Origin: an uncultured Candidatus Rokubacteria bacterium
GTDB taxonomy: Bacteria > Methylomirabilota > Methylomirabilia > Rokubacteriales > CSP1-6
Reading direction: 5' to 3'
Length of the DNA stretch: 64,000 nucleotides
Assembly (NCBI GenBank): GCA_963771355.1
Contig: CAVYTA010000006.1
Location: forward strand, 2,528,001 to 2,592,000
Part shown: positions 10,025-28,142 of the stretch, in pieces
Layout of the letters: each line of letters begins with the position of its first letter
Numbering within the stretch: the first letter of the stretch is position 1
Translations under genes and position numbers: made by a program
The notes under the pieces: model-generated
Databases searched by the model: none
Seen by the model: the letters and a program-made list of their open reading frames with translations, nothing else
What the model was told of the DNA's origin: nothing

Positions 10025-10632
10025 GGTCGCGGGGCCAGGCGCGCCGGCCGCGGGCCCCGCCGCCGCGCCCCCGCCACGCCGATGTACTCGAGCTCGCGGC
10101 CCGCGCGCACGCTGCGGAGCAGCAGTCCGCCGCGGCTCATATCGCCCCGGCCCACGAAGTCGGCGGGGAAGCGGAGCCGCTCGCCGAGCACGCCGAGGAG
10201 CGGCTCCAGATACTTCCCGGTGGCCACGCTCCCCAGCAGGACGACCTCGCACTCGGCCCCCGCGGCGCGGGCGAGACGGCGCGCGTCGCGGAGCAGCGGC
10301 ACCCGGTAGCGGCGGTCGTCCGCGGCGATGTCGACCTGCGCGTAACGCCGGAGCCGGCTCAGGTCCACCGGCTCGTCGGCGGGCCGCAGCCCTTCGGCGG
10401 GGGTGATGACGAGCACGCCGGGCACCCCGGCGGGGGGCCGCGCGAAGGCCTCCGCGTAGGCGAGCTTGCCGCGGAAGTAGAGGCCGCTGAGAAAGGAGAA
10501 CACGTCGCCCAGCGGAGCGCCGGGGGCGGCGCGCACCCGCCGCGCCAGGTCGAAGCGGGCGCGCGCGTCGAAGACGAGCCCCGCCCGCACGCCGCCACAG
10601 TGCGCGGGGGACAGCAGGAAGATACGGCTCAC
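10021..10632 (-). CDS. Hypothetical protein in the DNA-repair operon, possibly YaaA/DUF328-like
   Basis: 203 aa, (V)SRIFLLSPAHC...SFLSGLYFRGKLAYA...VVLLGSVATGKY...GRGDMSRGGLLLR. GTGA overlaps on both sides. Confidence 0.8.
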   Translation of the reverse strand: MSRIFLLSPAHCGGVRAGLVFDARARFDLARRVRAAPGAPLGDVFSFLSGLYFRGKLAYAEAFARPPAGVPGVLVITPAEGLRPADEPVDLSRLRRYAQVDIAADDRRYRVPLLRDARRLARAAGAECEVVLLGSVATGKYLEPLLGVLGERLRFPADFVGRGDMSRGGLLLRSVRAGRELEYIGVAGARRRGPRPARLAPRP

Positions 10633-12344
10633 CGGCGGGCCCCCGGCGCCACCGCGCGCGCGAAGGCCTCCGGGCCGCGCGTGTTGAGCACCTCGCCGCG
10701 CCGCACCCACCCGCGCCGCGCCATGGCCACCCCGTAGCGGAGATTCGCCAGCTCGTCGGTGGCGTGCGCATCGGTGGAGATCACGAAGGGGATGCCCCGC
10801 TCGCGCGCGGCCCGGATCCAGCGGGGCGGCAGGTCGAGCCGGTTGGGGTCGCCGTTGATCTCCACCGCCGCGCGGGAGGCGGCCACCACGTCCAGGATCT
10901 CCTCCACCCGGCAGTCGATGGGCGGCCGCGAGAGCACCAGCCGGCCCAGGGCATGACCCCAGACCTTGAAGCAGGGATGCGCCATCGCGCGGGCGATCCG
11001 CCGCGTCATCTCCTCCGCGCCCATGCGATGGCGGGCGTGCACGCTCGCGATCACGATGTCGAGGCGCTCGAGCACCGAGTCGGGATAGTCCAGGCCGCCG
11101 TCGGCGAGGATATCCGACTCGGTCCCCCGCAGGAGCCGCACCGACACCGTTTCCTGGACGCGCGCGATCTCCTCCCACTGCGCCTCGAGCCGGTCCACCG
11201 AGAGCCCGCCCGCGTAGGACGCGGTGGGCGAGTGATCGGTGATGGTCAGATAGCGCAGGCCGCGCGCCTCCGCCGCGCGCGCCATCTGCGCCACCGAGTG
11301 CCGACCGTCCGAGTACACGGTGTGGCAGTGGACGGCGCCCTGGACATCCTCCATGCGGACCAGGTCCGCCGGAAGACTGCCATCCGCCGCCGCCTCGATC
11401 TCGCCCGCCTCCTCGCGGAGCTCGGGCGGCACGTAGGCGAGGCCGAGCCGGCGGTAGATCTCGGCCTCGGTGGCAAAGCCGGCCTCGTCGAGGCGCAGCC
11501 CGCGCGCCTCCGCGAGCCGGCGCAGATGCGCCACGTGCGCCGGCGCGCCGGTGGCGTCCAGCAGCGCGGCCGCGTAGCGCTCCGGCGGCACCACCCGCAG
11601 CTCGAGACCGAGGCCGGTGGCGAGGGTGGCCCGCGCCGAGTCTCGCCCGCGCGCGCCGGCGGCCGCGATCAGCGGCGAGGCGAGTGCGCGCTCGAGTGCC
11701 GCCGCAGGCCGGCTGGAGCCCAGCACCACCACCAGCGATTCGACGGTCTCCGTGGTGCGACGGAGGTCGCCCGCGTAGTCGGCCTGGGTGACCCCGGGCG
11801 CCGCACGCACGTGGGCGAGCAGCGGCTCTGCCACGGCCAGCGCGTCGGGGAGCAGCACCCGGGTCTGCCTCGGCTCGTCGAGGGCGCGAATCTGCTCCAG
11901 GAGCCGCCGCTCCGTCTTCTCGCCCATCCCTTTCACTGCCCGCACCCGTCCGGCCTCGCAGGCCGCCCGGAGCTCCGCGACCGAGGTCACCCCCAGCGTC
12001 CGGTTCAGCGCGGCGATCTTCGCGAGCCCGAGGGAGGAGAGGCGGCTCAGCTCACCCGCGCCCGCGGGCAGCCGCTCGTTGAGCTGCTCCAGCGCCCGGC
12101 AGGCGCCGGTCTGGTGCAGCTCGGTGATCATGGCGGCGAGCCCAGGGCCAACCCCGCGGAGCTCGGTGAGCCGGCCCTCGGCCACGAGCGCGGCGAGCGC
12201 ATCGTCGTCCAGGCGCTGCACGACCTCGGCCCCGCGGGCGTAAGCCCGCGAGCGGAACGGCGTCTCCCCCAACAGCGCGGTGAGGCGCGCCATCTCCTGC
12301 AGGGCGGCGGCGACATGGGCGGACCCGTAACGCTTGGCCTTCAT
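10629..12344 (-). CDS. polX: DNA polymerase X / PHP-domain protein, non-canonical polymerase site
   Basis: PFRSRAY, HhH GVGPG, PELRE; PHP motifs HCHT, TDHS, GTESDIL, EIN, STDAH. The DxD motif is replaced (ETVESLVV). Confidence 0.92.
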   Translation of the reverse strand: MKAKRYGSAHVAAALQEMARLTALLGETPFRSRAYARGAEVVQRLDDDALAALVAEGRLTELRGVGPGLAAMITELHQTGACRALEQLNERLPAGAGELSRLSSLGLAKIAALNRTLGVTSVAELRAACEAGRVRAVKGMGEKTERRLLEQIRALDEPRQTRVLLPDALAVAEPLLAHVRAAPGVTQADYAGDLRRTTETVESLVVVLGSSRPAAALERALASPLIAAAGARGRDSARATLATGLGLELRVVPPERYAAALLDATGAPAHVAHLRRLAEARGLRLDEAGFATEAEIYRRLGLAYVPPELREEAGEIEAAADGSLPADLVRMEDVQGAVHCHTVYSDGRHSVAQMARAAEARGLRYLTITDHSPTASYAGGLSVDRLEAQWEEIARVQETVSVRLLRGTESDILADGGLDYPDSVLERLDIVIASVHARHRMGAEEMTRRIARAMAHPCFKVWGHALGRLVLSRPPIDCRVEEILDVVAASRAAVEINGDPNRLDLPPRWIRAARERGIPFVISTDAHATDELANLRYGVAMARRGWVRRGEVLNTRGPEAFARAVAPGARR

Positions 12345-13996: not shown

Positions 13997-14209
13997 CTAG
14001 TTCTTCTTGGTGATGTCGTAGATGGCCCCGCCCACCGCGCCGACGCCGGCTCCGATGAGGGCGCCCTTGCCGGCACCATAGCCGGTACCCGCGCCGACCG
14101 CCGCGCCCGCGCCCGCGCCCACCGCGGTGCCGGTGACCGTTCCGCAGCCCGCCGGCGCCACTGCCAGGGCGGATAGGGACACGACTGCCATGATCCTTCG
14201 CAGCGTCAT
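13997..14209 (-). CDS. Glycine-zipper lipoprotein
   Basis: 70 aa, lipobox-like PAGC, GAGAGAAVGAGTG...GALIGAGVGAVGG; GGAGG RBS. Confidence 0.8.
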   Translation of the reverse strand: MTLRRIMAVVSLSALAVAPAGCGTVTGTAVGAGAGAAVGAGTGYGAGKGALIGAGVGAVGGAIYDITKKN

Positions 14210-14257
14210 ATAGAGCCTCCTCCGAGAGAGTCTGAACTGCTCCTCCCCCCGGGGGGG

Positions 14258-14272
14258 GCAAGCGGCGTGCCA
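14258..14272 (-). promoter_or_regulatory. sigma54 (-24/-12) promoter
   Basis: TGGCAC-GCCGC-TTGC, 48 nt upstream of the glycine-zipper ATG. Confidence 0.75.
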
Positions 14273-14420
14273 CGCTACGCACGCCAGACGGCGCGCAGAA
14301 TCGACGCCATACGCGCTCCCGCCGAGGGTCGGCCACATACGCGGGAGTTTCTACCCGTTCGGATGGTTCCCATTTCCCGGTGTAGCGAGTCTCACCGCGG
14401 GCTCGGTGAAGAGCTGACGC

Positions 14421-15740
14421 CTACTTCCCCATCAACCGCGCGGGAAGCCAGGTGGCCAGCCCGGGGAAGAGCGCCACCAGCAGCAGCATCACCAGCCCCA
14501 GTATCACGTAGGGGGTCACCGCGCCGCAGACCTGTCCCATGGTGATGGACCGCGGCGCCACGCTCTTCATGGTGAAGAGGAGCATGCCGAAGGGCGGCGT
14601 GAGCAGGCCGAGCTGCATGCAGATGAGGAAGAGCACGCCGAACCAGACGGGGTCGAACCCGTAGAGCGTCACCAGCGGCATGAAGAACGGCAGCGTGATC
14701 AGCATCATGCTCACCTGGTCGATGAAGCAGCCCAGGACGAGCAGGATGAGCATCATGACGGTGAGGACCGCGGCGGGGCCGAACTGGGCGTCCTGCACCG
14801 CCGCCACCAGCCCGTTGGTCGCCCCCGAGAACGTCAGGATCTGGGAGAAGGTGGTGGCGCCCACGATGATGAAGAGGATCACCCCGGAGATGCCCGCCGT
14901 TCCCAGCAGGGCCTTCAGCAAGCCGTCCCAGGTCAGCGCGCGGTACATCGCCGCCACCAGCACGGTGGCCACCGCGCCGATGGCGGCGGACTCGGTGGGA
15001 GTGGCCCAGCCCGCGGCCATGGCGAGGATCACCACCACGAAGATGATCACCAGCGGCAGCACGTACACCACCAGGGGCCGCCAGCGGACCCAGCCGCGGA
15101 CCGGCTCGTGCGCGAAGGCCGGCGCGAGCCGTGGATCGAGCACGGCGCGGACGACGATATAGCCCACGAAGGAGGCGGCGAGGAGCACGCCGGGCACGAT
15201 GCCGGCGAGGAGGAGCCGCGAGATGGAGATGCCGGCCAGGCTGCCGAGGAGCACGGTGAGCGCGGAGGGCGGGATGAGCATGTCCACGCCCCCGATGGCC
15301 ATGATGGGGCCCATCGCCATCCCGGGCTGATAGCCGCGCCGGAGCATCTCGGGAAGCAGGAGGCTGCCCAGCAGCGCGGTGGTGGCGATGGTGGAGCCGG
15401 AGATCGCCGAGAACACCGTCCCCGCCACCACCGCCACCACCGAGAGACGCCCGGGGACGCGGGCGATGAGCCGGTCGATGGCGTCGATGGCCTTCATGGC
15501 CACCCCGGTGTGGAAGAGCACCTCCCCCATGAGCACGAAGAACGGGATCGGCGTGAGGGAGAAGCTCGCGATGGACGCCACCCCGTTCCGGATCATCTGC
15601 ACGAGGCCGGCGTCCCCGCCCAGCCACACCCAGGCGCCCACCACGTTGATCGCGAGGAACGCGAAGGCCGCCGGGAGGCCGAAGGCGAGGAGCACCGACA
15701 GGAGGCCGAAGAGAAGGGTCGCCGCGAGCCACCAGACCAT
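14421..15740 (-). CDS. dctM: TRAP transporter large permease DctM
   Basis: IPFFVLMGEVL, SAISGS, LIPPS, ATPTES, LLTPPFG. Confidence 0.92.
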   Translation of the reverse strand: MVWWLAATLLFGLLSVLLAFGLPAAFAFLAINVVGAWVWLGGDAGLVQMIRNGVASIASFSLTPIPFFVLMGEVLFHTGVAMKAIDAIDRLIARVPGRLSVVAVVAGTVFSAISGSTIATTALLGSLLLPEMLRRGYQPGMAMGPIMAIGGVDMLIPPSALTVLLGSLAGISISRLLLAGIVPGVLLAASFVGYIVVRAVLDPRLAPAFAHEPVRGWVRWRPLVVYVLPLVIIFVVVILAMAAGWATPTESAAIGAVATVLVAAMYRALTWDGLLKALLGTAGISGVILFIIVGATTFSQILTFSGATNGLVAAVQDAQFGPAAVLTVMMLILLVLGCFIDQVSMMLITLPFFMPLVTLYGFDPVWFGVLFLICMQLGLLTPPFGMLLFTMKSVAPRSITMGQVCGAVTPYVILGLVMLLLVALFPGLATWLPARLMGK

Positions 15741-15766
15741 GAAGGAACCGGGGGACGAGCGCGCCG

Positions 15767-16261
15767 CTAGGCGTGCGGCCCGCTGCCCTCGAGGGCCCCG
15801 CCGAGCAGAAGGCGCCGCACGAACTCCACCCCGAGCACGGCGAAGCACACCGGCACCGGGGCATAGAGCCACCATTCCGGGAAGACGACCGCCTTGATCA
15901 CCATGGAGCCCTGCTGGGCCGAGCTGGCGATGGCCCGCGCGCCATAGATGACGAAGACCGTGGAGACGGCCAGCCCCACCAGGTCCGAGAGCCGCTCCAG
16001 CGCGCGCGCGGCGGGCCCCGGCAGCGAGGTGAGCAGGACGTCGAGCCGCACGTGCTCGTTCCGGTGGAGCAGCCACGGCGCCACCAGGAAGGTGGCGAGG
16101 GGAAGGCTATACTCCGAGACCTCGATGATCCAGGGCAGGGTCCCGAGCCCGAGGTTCCGGGCGAGGACGTCTCCGGTCACCAGGAGCGCCAGCACACCGA
16201 GGAGAAGCGCGGCCGCCACCGCCCCCGCGCGCAGCAGCCCCCGGTAGGCCCGCCCGAGCAT
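15767..16261 (-). CDS. dctQ: TRAP transporter small permease DctQ
   Basis: Four hydrophobic segments, EVSEY, EHVRLD. Confidence 0.9.
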   Translation of the reverse strand: MLGRAYRGLLRAGAVAAALLLGVLALLVTGDVLARNLGLGTLPWIIEVSEYSLPLATFLVAPWLLHRNEHVRLDVLLTSLPGPAARALERLSDLVGLAVSTVFVIYGARAIASSAQQGSMVIKAVVFPEWWLYAPVPVCFAVLGVEFVRRLLLGGALEGSGPHA

Positions 16262-16267
16262 CGCGCG

Positions 16268-18358
<2,091 letters not shown>

Positions 18359-18359
<1 letters not shown>

Positions 18360-18898
18360 TAACTCGCCGCCTTTACGGTAACCGCTTTGACCACGAGGTC
18401 GATGACCAGCTCCGCCTTCTTCAGCACCTCGTCCTCACGGATCCCGCCGAGCGGATGCGGGATGAGCGCGAGGGGGAGATCCGCCATGCCGCGGTTCTTG
18501 GCCTCCAGCTTGGCGAGCTGCTCGAACTCGAAGGTCCCCAGGACGACGGACGGGATCCCCTTCTGCTCCAGCACGATGGCGCCGTGGATACTCCACGACG
18601 TGCACGACCCTCAGTCGGCGCTGCCGACCAGGGCGAAGTCGCACTGGGTGAGCGCGTCGAGGATGGTGGGCGACGGCGCCCCCGCGATGCCCTTCTCGCG
18701 CTTCACGATCTCGCCCACGCCGTACTGCTCCTGGAGCCGGCGCGCTACCGTCAGCATCAAGAAGCCGGCATTGGCCTTGCTGTTGTCGAGAATGGCCACC
18801 TTCTTGCCGCGCAGGCTCGAGAGCCGCTGGGCGAGGCCCGCGGCGAGGATGCGGGGCTCGGCGGTGGGATCGTAGAGGACCACTTCCTTCGCGCTCAT
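18359..18898 (-). CDS. UGSC-motif selenoprotein (179 aa, Sec at TGA 18613-18611)
   Basis: ORFs 18611..18898 and 18359..18574 are in the same frame, joined through GCC GAC TGA GGG TCG TGC = A-D-U-G-S-C. Hairpin immediately downstream. Confidence 0.88.
18580..18600 (-). promoter_or_regulatory. Bacterial SECIS-like hairpin
   Basis: mRNA CGUCGUGGA-GUA-UCCACGGCG: 9-bp stem starting 11 nt after UGA, G-containing loop at about +20. Confidence 0.75.
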
Positions 18899-19031
18899 GC
18901 CTCACGCCCTCCGATTCATGGGGGTGAACAACCGGCCCCGCCCGCGGACGCCGCCGGGCGTGCTCGCCCATTAAAGCACGAGTCCGCCGCCGCCCGCCCG
19001 GCCGGGATTCGGAGTAGCATGTTGTCCGCCC

Positions 19032-19937
19032 ATGAGTCCCGGCGCCACGCCGATCCTCGAGCTGAGAGAGCTGACCAAGCGCTACGGCGAGGTGGAGGCC
19101 CTGCGCGGCATCAGCCTCGCCATCGCCGCCGGCGAGATCGTCGCCATGCTGGGCCCCAACGGCGCGGGCAAGACCACCTCGATCAGCCTCATGCTCGGAT
19201 TGCGCCGGCCGAGCTCCGGCGACGTCCGCCTGTTCGGTCTGCCTCCCACCGACCGCCGAGCGCGGAGCCGGGTCGGCGTGATGCTCCAGGAATCCGGCGC
19301 CCCCGGTGTCCTCACCGTCCGCGAGCTGATCGGGCTCTTCGGCACCTACTATCCCGCGCCCCTGCCGGTGGCGCAGGCCCTCGCCATGGCCGGCCTGGAG
19401 GACAAGGCAGACGCGCGCGTGGCCACGCTGTCGGGCGGGCAGCGCCAGCGGCTGTACTTCGCCCTCGCCGTGGGCGGCAATCCCGAGGCGCTCTTCCTCG
19501 ACGAGCCCACGGTGGGCATGGACATCGAGGCGCGCCGGGCCTTCGTGACCGCCATCCAGGCGCTCGCCGCCGCCGGCAAGAGCGTGATCTTCACCACGCA
19601 CTATCTCCGGGAGGCGGAGGAGCTCGCCACCCGCATCGTGGTCATCGATCGCGGGATCGTCATCGCCGACGCGGCGCCGCGGGTGCTCATGTCGCGGGTG
19701 GCGGGCAAGCGCGTGGCCTTCACGGTGGCGCGGCCCCTGCCCGCCGACGCCTTCGCCGGGCTGGTCGTCACCGCCCTGGACGTGTCCGACGGGCGCGTAC
19801 GCTTCCTCACCAGCGAGCCGGAGACCGCGTTGCGCCGGCTCTTCGAGCGGGGGGTGGAGCCGCACGACCTCGAGGTGGCGGGAGCCGACCTCGAGGAGGC
19901 GGTGCTGAGCCTGACCCGGCGACCGGAGCGCGCGTGA
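19032..19937 (+). CDS. ABC-2 exporter ATP-binding protein
   Basis: GPNGAGKTT, LSGGQRQR, LFLDEPT. Confidence 0.93.
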   Translation: MSPGATPILELRELTKRYGEVEALRGISLAIAAGEIVAMLGPNGAGKTTSISLMLGLRRPSSGDVRLFGLPPTDRRARSRVGVMLQESGAPGVLTVRELIGLFGTYYPAPLPVAQALAMAGLEDKADARVATLSGGQRQRLYFALAVGGNPEALFLDEPTVGMDIEARRAFVTAIQALAAAGKSVIFTTHYLREAEELATRIVVIDRGIVIADAAPRVLMSRVAGKRVAFTVARPLPADAFAGLVVTALDVSDGRVRFLTSEPETALRRLFERGVEPHDLEVAGADLEEAVLSLTRRPERA

Positions 19938-20701
19938 CCGCGCCGCTGCTCCGGATGCTGGGCGCGCAGACCCTGGCCGAGCTGCGCGCCCGCTGGCGTG
20001 TCGCCGCCTTCAGCATGACGAGCCTGGCGCTCCCCGTGGTGTTCTTCACCTTCTTCGGACTGCCGTTCGCGGGCCAGACCTTCCCCGACGGGGTGAGCGT
20101 GGGCGCGTATCTGCTCGTCTCCTTCGCCGCCTACGGCGTGGGGAACGTGATGGTGTACGGCTTCGGGATCGGCGTGGCCAACGAGCGCGGCATGAAGGTC
20201 GATCTCCTGATGCGCGCCACCCCGCTGCCGCCCGCGGTCGCGGTGCTCGCCAAGGTGCTGGTAGCGCTGGCCTTCGCGCTGGTGTCGATCGTGGTGCTGA
20301 TCGTCTACGGCGTGGTGGTGGGCGGGGTGCGGCAGGACCTGACCGTCTGGCTGCAGGTCATCGTGCGTCTCCTCGCGGGCTCGCTGCCCTTCGTGGCGCT
20401 CGGGTTCGCCATCGGCTACACCGCGGGCCCCCACGCGGCGCCCGCGCTCGCCAACCTCATCTATCTCCCGCTGTCCTTCGCCTCGGGGCTGTTCATGCCG
20501 GTGAGCCAGCTGCCCGGCTTCGTGCAGCGCGTGGCGCCCTATCTGCCGTCCTACCACTACGGCCAGCTGGCGTGGAGCGCGGTGGGGGCGCGGGCGGAGC
20601 CGCTCGTGGTGAGCCTGGCCTGGCTGGCCGGCTATACCGTGCTCTTCCTCGCCATCGCCGTGCGGGCCTACCGACGGGAGGAATCGCGGAAGTTCGCCTA
20701 G
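19934..20701 (+). CDS. ABC-2 exporter permease
   Basis: C-terminal part of ORF 18455..20701; about six hydrophobic segments, LMRATP, SGLFMP; GTGA overlap. Confidence 0.88.
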   Translation: MTAPLLRMLGAQTLAELRARWRVAAFSMTSLALPVVFFTFFGLPFAGQTFPDGVSVGAYLLVSFAAYGVGNVMVYGFGIGVANERGMKVDLLMRATPLPPAVAVLAKVLVALAFALVSIVVLIVYGVVVGGVRQDLTVWLQVIVRLLAGSLPFVALGFAIGYTAGPHAAPALANLIYLPLSFASGLFMPVSQLPGFVQRVAPYLPSYHYGQLAWSAVGARAEPLVVSLAWLAGYTVLFLAIAVRAYRREESRKFA

Positions 20702-22036
20702 CCCGCCTGCACCGTCTCCACCAGCCACTTCGCGGTGCGCAGGAGCCGGGCGTCGCCCAGCCGCGGCCCCACCAGCTGCACGCCCAGCGGCAGGCCGTTC
20801 TCGCCCTGCATGAGCGGGACGCTGAGCGCGGGCATCCCGCAGAGGGTCCACACCGAGTTGAAGGCGGGATCCCCCGTCGACTCGAGGCCGCGGGGCGCGG
20901 TGCCGCTGGCGGCGGGAGTGAGGATGGCGTCGTAACGCTGGCCGAACAGCTCCTCGAACCCGGCGTTCAGGGCCGGCCGTCGCGCGAGCGCCTGGAGGTA
21001 GTCGCGGGCGCGCACCTCGCGGCCGCGGGCGAGACGCTCCACCATGGAGGGCGAGAGCTGCGCGCGCCCACGCTCCCACGCCCAGTCGAGGTTCGCCGCC
21101 ATCTCCGAGTCGAGGATGAGCCGGTGCCACTCCAGCGCCTGGACTCACGGGCTCGCCGAGGTCCAGCTCCTCCACGCGATCGCCGAGAAAGTCCACCAGC
21201 TCCGCGAAGGCCTCGCGGGCGTCCCCGTCCACGTGCTCCCAGCGCGCCGTCTTCACGAAGGCGAAGAGCGGCGGGATGGGGGGCTCCGAGGCGGCGATCT
21301 CTCGGTAGCGCGGATACGCCGAGGCGCGCGAGTCGGGATCGCGCGCGTCGTACCCCACCAGCACCTCGGCCAGCAGCGCCACGTCCTCGAGGGTGCGCGC
21401 GAACACGCCCACGTGATCGAGCGAGCGCGAGAGCTGGAACATGCCGTGGCGCGAGATCAGGCCGTGGGTGGGCTTGAAGCCGAAGACGCCGCAGTAGGTG
21501 GCGGGCCGGATCACCGAACCGCCGGTCTGGCTGCCCACCGCCAGCGGCACCTGGCTCGCCGCCACCGCCGCCGCCGAGCCGCTGGAGGAGCCGCCGGGAG
21601 TATGCGCGGGGTTCACCGGATTGCGCGTCTTGCCCGGCGCGCGCGCGGCGAACTCGGTGGTCACCGTCTTGCCCAGGAGCACCGCGCCCGCCGCGCGCAG
21701 CCGCTCCACCACCGCGGCGTCCCGCGTGGGCACGCGGCCGGCGTGCAGCGGCGAGCCGTTCTCGGTCGGCATGTCCGCGGTGTCGATGATGTCCTTGAGG
21801 CCCACCGGCACCCCGTGGAGCGGTCCGGTGGGCGCGCCCGAGCGGCGCGCCTCGTCGGCCGCGCGCGCCTGCGCGAGCGCGTGCTCCGGATCCAGATAGG
21901 TCCAGGCCTGGAGCTCGGCTTCCGTCGCCTCCACCCGGGCCAGGCAGGCCTCGATCAGGGCGGTGGAGTCCAGCGCCCCTTCACGGATCAGGCGGGCGGC
22001 GGCGGCGGCGGACAGGCGGTGGAGGTCAGTTTCCGT
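20698..22036 (-). CDS. Amidase (GatA-like), frameshift near 21143, start codon uncertain
   Basis: GPLHGVPVGLKD, GGSSSGSAAA, GSQTGGSVIRPA. The C-terminus (GLPLGVQL) is in ORF 20698..21102. Confidence 0.85.
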
Positions 22037-26023: not shown

Positions 26024-26227
26024 GGTGACGCCTCCTGGGGTCGGTCGTTGAAGTGGCCACATTGCGACTCCGAGCGATTCCGACGCAAAGCCCGGCTCCT
26101 CTCTTGCGGAGGGCTCCTTGGGCCGGTCCGGTCGGACCATCGAGCCAGCGGCAATTTTACAGGCCGCTGCCCCTCCAGGTAAAGGCTCTTGAAGGCTATA
26201 ATGGCGTCCCCGAAAGGAGAGTTCCCC

Positions 26228-27067
26228 ATGAGAGCCCTGGCCGAGCGGATGAACGCGCTATGCGATGCCCTGCCCTTCCAGACCAGCTGGTACCTCCAGA
26301 GCCTCGGCACCGGCGAGCGGGCGGACCGGCTGGGCGACCTCCCCGTGCCGTCCGCCAGCACGCGCAAGATCTCCATCCTCATGGCGGCGCTCAAGGCCGT
26401 GGCCGACGGCAAGCTCGCCCTCGACCAGAAAGTGACCGTGGACGCCCGGTATCAGGACAATGATTCCGGGACCTTCCAGCACCTCACCCCCGGCTTCTGG
26501 ATCACCCTCCGCGACGCCCTGGTGATGATGATCATCGTGAGCGACAACACCTGCACCGGGACGGTGGTGGACCTGGTGGGGCTGGGGGAGATACAGCGCC
26601 TGTGCGAGTCGGTCGGGATGTCTCGCACGGTCCACCGTTACGGCATCCCGCCGCGGCTGCCCGCCGATCACGGGCTCGAGCAAGTCACCTCCACCACCCC
26701 GCGCGACCAGGGACTGCTCCTGGACCTCATGCTCCGCGGGGCGGACGACACCGCGACGGCCGCGCAGCTGGGCTCGACCCCCGCACTCTGCCGGCTGGGG
26801 CTGGACATCCTGTCGTGGCAGAAGCTCAAGACCCGCCTGCCCTCGCTCTTGCCGCTGGGCACCAAGGTCGCGCACAAGACGGGGACGGGCTCGCGCGGCT
26901 ACATGGATGCCGGCATCGTCTACAAGGAGGGCCGCCCGCTCTTCATCCTCACCGCCTATACGGACGGCGTGCCCGCCGCGCTGCCCGACGGCATGCCCGG
27001 CTTCGCCGCCGCCAACCAGGTCATCGGCCGCATGGCGCGGCTGGCCTGGGACGACCTCGGGGGCTGA
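26228..27067 (+). CDS. Class A beta-lactamase-fold serine hydrolase
   Basis: SxxK (STRK), SDN, HKTG; AAGGAG RBS; TATAAT at 26197-26202; no signal peptide. Confidence 0.85.
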   Translation: MRALAERMNALCDALPFQTSWYLQSLGTGERADRLGDLPVPSASTRKISILMAALKAVADGKLALDQKVTVDARYQDNDSGTFQHLTPGFWITLRDALVMMIIVSDNTCTGTVVDLVGLGEIQRLCESVGMSRTVHRYGIPPRLPADHGLEQVTSTTPRDQGLLLDLMLRGADDTATAAQLGSTPALCRLGLDILSWQKLKTRLPSLLPLGTKVAHKTGTGSRGYMDAGIVYKEGRPLFILTAYTDGVPAALPDGMPGFAAANQVIGRMARLAWDDLGG

Positions 27068-27073
27068 GCGGGG

Positions 27074-28103
27074 CTAGCTCGTCTTCCCCGCGTAGCCCTG
27101 GCGGTGGAAGTAGTTGGCGTTGTAGAAGGCCAGGACGAGGTCGCGGTAGACGGCGGGGGGATAGCGCGGCGGATCATCCGCGCTCGTGCAGCTCGGCACG
27201 CATTCGATGACCGAGTCCACGTTGGGGCTGTAGAAGAAGGCGATGGAGTAGCGGTCGTTCCCCGAGTCGTTGAGCACCCCGTGCGGGGTCGAGTGGAAGC
27301 GGTCGTTGGACCACCGCTTCATCATGTTGCCCAGGTTGACCAGGAAGGTCCCCTCGATCAGGGGCGGCGCCAGCCACTCCCCGCTGGGCAGCCGCACCGC
27401 CAGCCCCGGCACCTCGGTGCGCGCCAGGATGGTGATGAAGGAGTTGTCGGTGTGCGGCCCCTGCCCGAACTGCTCGTCGTCCTCCACCTCCTGCGGCGGG
27501 TAGTGCAGGAAGCGCAGGTTGATGTGCGCCTCGCCGGCGAAGAAGGGCGCGAACCAGTCGGCGGGCAGGTCCAGCGCGCGGGCGAGCACGGGCAGCATCT
27601 TCTCGCCCACCGCTTCCAGCGTGGTGAAGTAGGCGACCATGGCCGCCCGCATCTCGGCCATGGCCCGCCGGCCACTGGTTGCGGCCGCGGAGCGTCTCGC
27701 CGTTCACGATGGCGGGATGGTCGGGCCCGCGGTCGTGGCTGATGAAGAAGCTCTCGTTGTAGTTCGGCCGGGTGGCCTTGTGGACGGTGGAGGCGCCCTG
27801 GATGCTCTCGTTGGGCGCGAGGTAGCCGATATTGTTCTCGTTGATGGCGAGGCCCCGCTTGACCGCGTCGGGCAGCGCGTGGAACTCGCGGGAGGCGGCG
27901 AAGGCCGCGTCCACCACCGCGTCCGGCACGCCGTGGCCGGCCAGGTAGAAGAACCCGATCTCCTCGCTGGCGCGCCGCACCTGCCGGGCCACCGCCTCGA
28001 GCCCGCCCGGCTCGCCGCGGAACGCGGGGCCGAAGTCGATCACGGGGATCGCCCGCGTCACCGCCTCGGGGTCCTTCACCGCCATCGCCTTGAAGATATT
28101 CAT
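27074..28103 (-). CDS. 2-oxoglutarate/Fe(II) oxygenase (IPNS-like family), frameshift near 27662
   Basis: IPVIDF, GFFYL.GHG, RFLHYP, HTD, STPH, RYSIAFF split over two frames. Confidence 0.87.
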
Positions 28104-28142
28104 CACGCCTCCCGTGAGCGGCCGGCTGGCCCGGCCGCCCCG

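Follow-up and report, generated by a model that had tools for sequence, protein, structure and literature searches.

A TGA codon inside a gene of an uncultured Candidatus Rokubacteria bacterium almost certainly specifies selenocysteine (Sec) in a 179-aa protein, which by its profile matches is a further member of the already catalogued UGSC family. The gene lies on the minus strand at positions 18359 to 18898 of the window, i.e., the whole 64,000-nucleotide stretch of DNA analysed here. Its product very probably works together with the Unknown_1 protein encoded by the next gene, and profile comparisons make a common ancestry with the selenoproteins GrdB and PrdB highly likely. A single added UGSC member is of little weight; most of the interest lies in the partner gene and in the resemblance to GrdB/PrdB, both of which the original prediction had missed. 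With them, an orphan family becomes a defined two-protein system with testable chemistry, and the thioredoxin fold assumed for UGSC is put in question. The relevant features are as follows.

18908..18912, minus strand: Shine-Dalgarno-like GGAGG, 9 nt upstream of the UGSC ATG (from the sequence)
18359..18898, minus strand: UGSC-family gene, 179 aa with the TGA as predicted Sec (from translation and the PF24696 and NF041046 profiles)
18611..18613, minus strand: in-frame TGA, codon 96, predicted Sec (from Cys in relatives and TGA in distant domains)
18602..18604, minus strand: Cys99, second residue of the UxxC motif, predicted resolving thiol (from the representatives' alignment column)
18580..18600, minus strand: SECIS-type hairpin, 9 bp, loop GUA at 18591-18589 (from folding and comparative tests)
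17265..18359, minus strand: partner gene, 364 aa, Unknown_1 domain, its ATG overlapping the UGSC stop as TAATG (from this overlap, co-occurrence and a figure comparison)
14421..17239, minus strand: TRAP transporter genes dctP (16268 to about 17239), dctQ (15767-16261) and dctM (14421-15770), co-oriented

A UGSC-family gene divided by a TGA codon

Translation of the minus strand from 18898 to 18359 gave 179 codons and a TAA, with a single internal TGA in the context VGSAD*GSCTSWSIHG. The two called ORFs are one frame read through this TGA, as the original prediction had proposed without stating the strand. The expectation that standard pipelines would divide the gene was borne out by the ORF list, which cuts it into pieces of 95 aa (18611-18898) and 71 aa (18359-18574); no Shine-Dalgarno-like motif was seen upstream of the internal GTG at 18574. 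The GC3 values of the two halves were 0.95 and 0.90, and across 10 orthologues both halves were similarly conserved and free of stops. Ordinary gene calling breaks UGSC genes more widely, and most of 69 database matches span at most about half of the query. Neither a sigma-70 promoter match nor a minus-strand terminator was found in window 14000-19200. Contigs assembled from RNA runs align to the region; they are unable to show transcription, and their small shares carry no weight.

The read-through protein matched the Pfam UGSC family, PF24696, with 148.2 bits (cut-off 25) over profile positions 2-171 of 172. The part before the TGA matched positions 2-92 and the part after it 94-171, each its own half only. 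When C was put for U, NF041046, the only NCBIfam family match, gave 123.7 bits against a cut-off of 125 (E 5.9e-36, profile 2-146 of 147). The two entries agree with the earlier statement that UGSC proteins are a recognised family of unexplained function, which went under the name 'UGSC-containing protein' in the available parts of PMC2398784 and PMC1976440. The gene shares with this family the full-length profile match, the UGSC motif, the in-frame UGA with a SECIS element and the existence of Cys-type homologues, and it differs in falling 1.3 bits below the NCBIfam cut-off and in having Gly106 for the usual Asp, neither of which sets it outside the family. Codon 106 (window 18581-18583, minus strand) is Gly in its own sub-clade, and Asp in 93% of the Cys-type representatives and in 63 of 71 Sec-type domains. 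No second Pfam family common to UGSC members appeared among the matches listed (25 of 58; 142 members scanned).

Six UGSC genes occur in the source genome, and all of them carry a single TGA at the motif. UGSC genes were found in 61 of 61 related genomes searched, a tally that counts the source genome and the unpublished G016 and G030; all other alignments and statistics are independent of G016 and G030. One stretch of the source genome (contig C5:163698-165323) encodes a UGSC-Unknown_1 fusion of 547 aa, whose motif is the variant USTC and whose hairpin differs and is longer.

Predicted selenocysteine at codon 96

Cys had been expected opposite the UGA, and it occupied this column in 145 of the best 150 full-length representatives from the UGSC profile search, with Ser in 4 and Gly in 1; the profile was seeded with Cys-type sequences, so that Cys matches are favoured in this count. 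The Cys99 column held Cys in 136 and Ser in 12 of the same 150. We also collected loci by alignment of the partner protein; the search covered 3 of the collection's 64 parts and gave 610 candidates, of which the best 80 were used. They contained 76 UGSC domains, 4 of which were partial or without the motif. The other 72, from many phyla, had 71 TGA codons and 1 TGT at the motif.

The source genome (99.8% complete) carries a tRNA-SeC at contig C7:111447-111544, adjoined by selA (555 bits) and selB (367 bits), and selD (266 bits) on contig C4, all three above their cut-offs. Use of Sec by the organism, as originally proposed, is consistent with this complete set. The SelD (contig C4:225335-226252) is itself of the Cys type (CGGC) and lies within an 817-codon open frame, which may be the Ndh-SelD fusion mentioned in the available part of PMC2398784. 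TGA ends 2194 of 3601 called genes of at least 200 aa and is the main stop codon, so the genome code is neither 4 nor 25, and alternative genetic codes were rejected.

The base call was compared with contigs assembled from the public runs of four studies, which are not raw reads and one of which may be the source sample; no other letter was listed at 18611-18613. Contig X10 bridges the codon in a 1873-nt record, and X1, X2 and X9 cover it closer to the record ends. Alternatively, the codon could be a genuine stop, a lesion in a pseudogene, an error of assembly or reassigned to Trp or Gly. The assembly may contain errors, since two further genes of the window look frameshifted, and a few single-member database proteins carry S, L or R at the TGA column. 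Against this, all 6 paralogues, 71 of 72 distant domains and the public contigs have TGA at the identical codon, the two halves are conserved alike and stop-free in the 10 orthologues, the aligned residue is Cys, and TGA is the genome's main stop. This explanation is largely refuted, and we consider it very improbable.

Three kinds of observation that could have spoken against Sec were looked for. The public contigs keep TGA, without TGC or TGT; selA, selB, selD and tRNA-Sec are all present; and relatives run on past the codon instead of ending there. The best reading is one 179-aa UGSC-family protein with predicted incorporation of Sec. The description 'redox-type' given to it holds as far as it is deduced from the UxxC motif.

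A conserved hairpin follows the TGA

The hairpin has 9 pairs, a 3-nt GUA loop, 19 nt from the UGA to the loop and a folding energy of -14.0 kcal/mol. A 9-bp hairpin at 18580-18600 with a G-containing loop about 20 nt past the UGA had been described, and the G proved to be the first base of the loop. It fits the bacterial SECIS geometry, as had also been claimed, lying inside all limits given in the available part of PMC13188914 (loop of 3-9 nt, stem of 4-16 bp, G in the first two loop positions, 16-37 nt from the UGA, energy of -7.5 kcal/mol or lower). Shuffled sequences equalled it in 1 of 200 cases for a 27-nt stretch, and in 26, 41 and 149 of 200 for stretches of 40, 50 and 80 nt. Among 5000 synonymous recodings, 247 folded equally well and 6 did so with an unchanged GU triloop. 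Of 2193 ordinary TGA stops in the source genome, 3 are followed by a hairpin in this register. By itself, the hairpin is evidence of only moderate strength, and it is weak alone in DNA of 70% GC.

Strong support came from comparison. Among 10 orthologues, no synonymous change was seen in 60 comparable codons at positions +4 to +10 after the TGA, versus 128 of 475 (27%) in the upstream flank and 143 of 468 (31%) in the downstream flank. In 69 distinct sequences, the Ser codon that supplies the loop GU was AGT in 57 of 58 cases against a background of 8.7%, and the Val codon at +8 was GTC in all 24 cases with G as its pairing base and GTG in all 15 cases with C. In 35 hand-picked sequences, 92.9% of the hairpin cells were paired, with 21 double changes, compared with 18-48% in slid controls; related sequences inflate these covariation counts, and the sequence set spans several phyla. 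These comparisons, including compensatory changes across phyla, clearly argue that selection acts on the hairpin. The Gly106 change of the own sub-clade turns a U-A pair into U-G and preserves the stem. The TGT-type locus (L165) was without a hairpin. Window 18583-18620, comprising the UGA and the hairpin, was the sole matching stretch of many unrelated soil DNA and RNA contigs that diverge on both sides, a further sign of nucleotide-level conservation.

The Unknown_1 protein as probable partner

The 364-aa protein encoded after the UGSC gene gave no Pfam or NCBIfam match. Judged by eye against Fig. S1A of PMC2398784, it belongs to the same family as Unknown_1. The available part of that paper reports a UGSC/Unknown_1 fusion, and describes neither regular adjacency nor a function there. 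In our data, UGSC was on the same strand at 71 of the 80 partner loci (best 80 of 610), within 300 nt at 66 of them and fused at 16; it was absent at 9, of which 2 were contig ends. The fusions, one of them in the source genome, thus recur as in PMC2398784, whereas the own locus has two separate, overlapping genes. All six UGSC genes of the source genome adjoin, or are fused to, a partner copy. It is this association which makes joint action of the two proteins very probable, and the adjacency and fusions suggest that they may form a complex.

Two of the eight partner copies in the source genome have no UGSC nearby. These copies (contigs C6:2676294-2677253 and C5:215732-216670) showed no UGSC domain within about 6 kb, and they may use UGSC made elsewhere. 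Partner homologues from Poribacteria (L121, L139, L144 and L151) match to about residue 280, with no UGSC within 5 kb, and are possibly a separate subtype.

The invariant polar residues of the partner are T112, N145, R150 and E184. It has no invariant Cys; C83 is kept in 50 of 61 sequences, so that the Cys highlighted for Unknown_1 in the available part of PMC2398784 is not invariant. Its closest named relatives, from Candidatus Rokubacteria / Methylomirabilota, are 71-80% identical. The structural model (pLDDT 92) has no clear match among solved structures: Foldseek gave none at E of 0.001 or below, and the best Z was 5.5 with the whole-chain model, which is no proof of a new fold. Profile comparison lent no support to the partner as a GrdE/PrdA-like protein (0.4%), a fumarase alpha protein (0.2%) or an internal repeat (0.1%).

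At the own locus, the TRAP transporter genes are probably in the same operon as the UGSC and partner genes. They are kept in the related genome G007 (L084), replaced in G001 (L085), and not among the genes listed at six loci of other genera (L086-L091). A transporter of this type was accordingly rejected as a fixed part of the system. The neighbours at the best 80 of the 610 partner loci included TctC (15), luciferase-like (14), NHL (9), SDR (8), CoA-transferase (8), PrpD (6) and thioredoxin-reductase-like (6) genes, the last being absent from the own locus; these are raw counts, uncontrolled for the frequency of such genes in such genomes.

Predicted fold and probable relation to GrdB/PrdB

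In the UGSC model (pLDDT 95.6), five strands alternate with helices, and U96 stands at the start of helix 97-112, which follows strand 3. Its best structural matches were flavodoxin-, receiver- and periplasmic-binding-type domains (Z 9-11, no single one clearly ahead), with no thioredoxin-titled entry among the matches listed. The fold is predicted to be flavodoxin-like. UGSC was called likely Trx-like in the available part of PMC2398784, and with the thioredoxin-fold UxxC selenoproteins (Trx-like, Prx-like) it does share UxxC at a helix start and a probable Se-S cycling; its predicted topology and, among those listed, its best fold matches are of the flavodoxin/receiver type instead. PDB chains were searched by sequence and by profile with UGSC, the partner and a GrdB-type protein, and nothing credible was found, so no solved GrdB/PrdB structure was at hand for fold comparison.

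HHalign aligned UGSC residues 74-176 with a GrdB-type profile at 96.7% (E 3.8e-10, 96 columns), Sec on Sec. This profile was built from 22 proteins of 24 loci, 2 truncated ones being left out, and both the GrdB and PrdB sets come from one phylum and are labelled by PF07355 only. The best of 62 control families reached 16%, with a score of 26.5 against 71.7 for GrdB. In HMMER searches, the UGSC profile placed 16 of the 22 GrdB-type proteins above all non-UGSC proteins among 5013, and at E of 0.01 or below the GrdB profile recovered 44 of 151 UGSC proteins and none of the 5013 genome proteins. A separate PrdB-like set (19 of 20 genes) aligned with UGSC at 73.9% (E 2.8e-5). The N-terminal half of UGSC did not align with either (at most 1.8%), and PF07355 matched neither the UGSC protein at E of 1 or below nor any protein of the source genome.

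UGSC thus has in common with GrdB/PrdB (PF07355) the aligned residues 74-176, Sec in register and a UxxC-type motif after a strand; by inspection, a G-rich hairpin at comparable spacing from the UGA is also seen at the GrdB-type loci. It differs in its length of 179 aa versus about 240 or 435, in having no second CxxC cysteine, and in its partner, which is Unknown_1 here and the pyruvoyl protein GrdE/PrdA there. Judged by these alignments, UGSC probably descends with selenoprotein B and works like it, but is not a member. No partner homologue was found at 70 GrdB-, GrdE- or PrdB-type loci. PF09338 (GrdE/PrdA) had 0 matches in the 99.8% complete source genome and was present in 14 of 14 other genomes picked for GrdB-type genes. 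With neither PF09338 nor PF07355 there, and a partner unlike GrdE/PrdA, the known substrate-activating route is missing. PF07355 matched in 88 of the 121 genomes; many of the Methylomirabilota type have GrdB-type genes and short PrdB-like ones that contain an in-frame TGA (L172-L241), though the source genome has none. A link between UGSC and GrdB/PrdB was not found in the available parts of PMC2398784, PMC13188914, PMC1976440, PMC9312934, PMC5029168, PMC7539508, PMC9402790, PMC11229817 and PMC3091704; subscription papers, supplements or curator texts may state it.

Proposed function of the UGSC/Unknown_1 pair

By analogy with PrdB, the two proteins likely form a two-subunit Sec-dependent reductase. 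According to the available parts of PMC3091704 and PMC11229817, the PrdB Sec attacks a substrate carbon held by PrdA and gives a selenoether, which a PrdB cysteine cleaves to leave a Se-S bond that is then reduced. Following this scheme, Unknown_1 would stand in for the pyruvoyl subunit and would bind and activate a small substrate, the U96 selenolate would attack it, C99 would free the product with a Se-S bond remaining, and a thioredoxin-type system would re-reduce that bond. The whole sequence of events, in which Sec is inserted at the UGA through the adjacent hairpin and SelABCD and UGSC serves as the selenium subunit of a two-part reductase with Unknown_1, has in our estimation a little better than an even chance of being correct. 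We also lean slightly toward a reductive turnover of substrate bound to the partner, again by the PrdB analogy. More tentatively, and with somewhat less than even probability, the pair may represent an undescribed, widespread class of Se-dependent reductases that would use GrdB/PrdB selenolate chemistry without a pyruvoyl subunit; Unknown_1, with no clearly matched fold, would supply substrate binding, and each paralogous pair would cleave a different small organic substrate.

UGSC may instead act generally as a thiol-disulfide or peroxide reductase, for which the partner would be a protein client or an accessory. The predicted position of UxxC at a helix start, the 'Trx-like' view of UGSC in the literature, a peroxidase activity of GrdB in a reference title within the available part of PMC3091704, and one Atlas cluster of the partner named thioredoxin all favour this function. 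However, the best fold matches described above include no thioredoxin title among those listed, the partner invariants T112, N145, R150 and E184 are not Cys, and several relatives have 6-11 paralogous pairs per genome, a number which suggests specialised substrates. A general reductase is unlikely in our judgement.

Slightly less likely still is that U96 and C99 ligate a metal or Fe-S cluster at the partner interface, which would make the enzyme resemble a hydratase or dehydratase and not a covalent reductase. For the partner, Foldseek placed class I fumarate hydratases at the top (E 2.4e-3, TM 0.22; also Z 4.6, rmsd 5.2, 181 aligned), and for UGSC a chain from the methyl-coenzyme M reductase activation complex came second (Z 10.8, rmsd 3.6, 134 aligned). 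These structural scores are, however, weak or level with unrelated matches, the fumarase alpha profile gave the partner 0.2%, Ser replaces C99 in 12 of 150 representatives, and in the available descriptions Sec acts as a nucleophile in GrdB/PrdB, which are closest to UGSC in sequence.

We regard as improbable a non-enzymatic redox sensor or regulatory pair, in which a receiver-like UGSC domain would switch the partner upon oxidation. Receiver domains are frequent among the fold matches and an adenylate/guanylate cyclase gene adjoins at two loci (L077, L114), but the receiver match is generic to the fold and the recurrent neighbours are transport and catabolic genes (raw counts at the best 80 of 610 loci).

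Other genes in the window

At window 20698-21960 (minus strand), the match to intact paralogues shifts frame near 21100-21330, which is a frameshift, either real or an assembly error. From its translation, we take this gene to be amidase-like. A 2OG-Fe(II) oxygenase gene at 27074-28120 (minus strand) runs over two frames near 27630-27670 when compared with the paralogue at C6:503079. A class A beta-lactamase-like protein is encoded at 26189-27067 on the plus strand (PF13354, 161 bits), by eye with no obvious signal peptide. A PolX-PHP DNA polymerase gene is located at 10629-12344 on the minus strand, and the region following it presumably encodes a LigD-like primase, a label taken from the translation.
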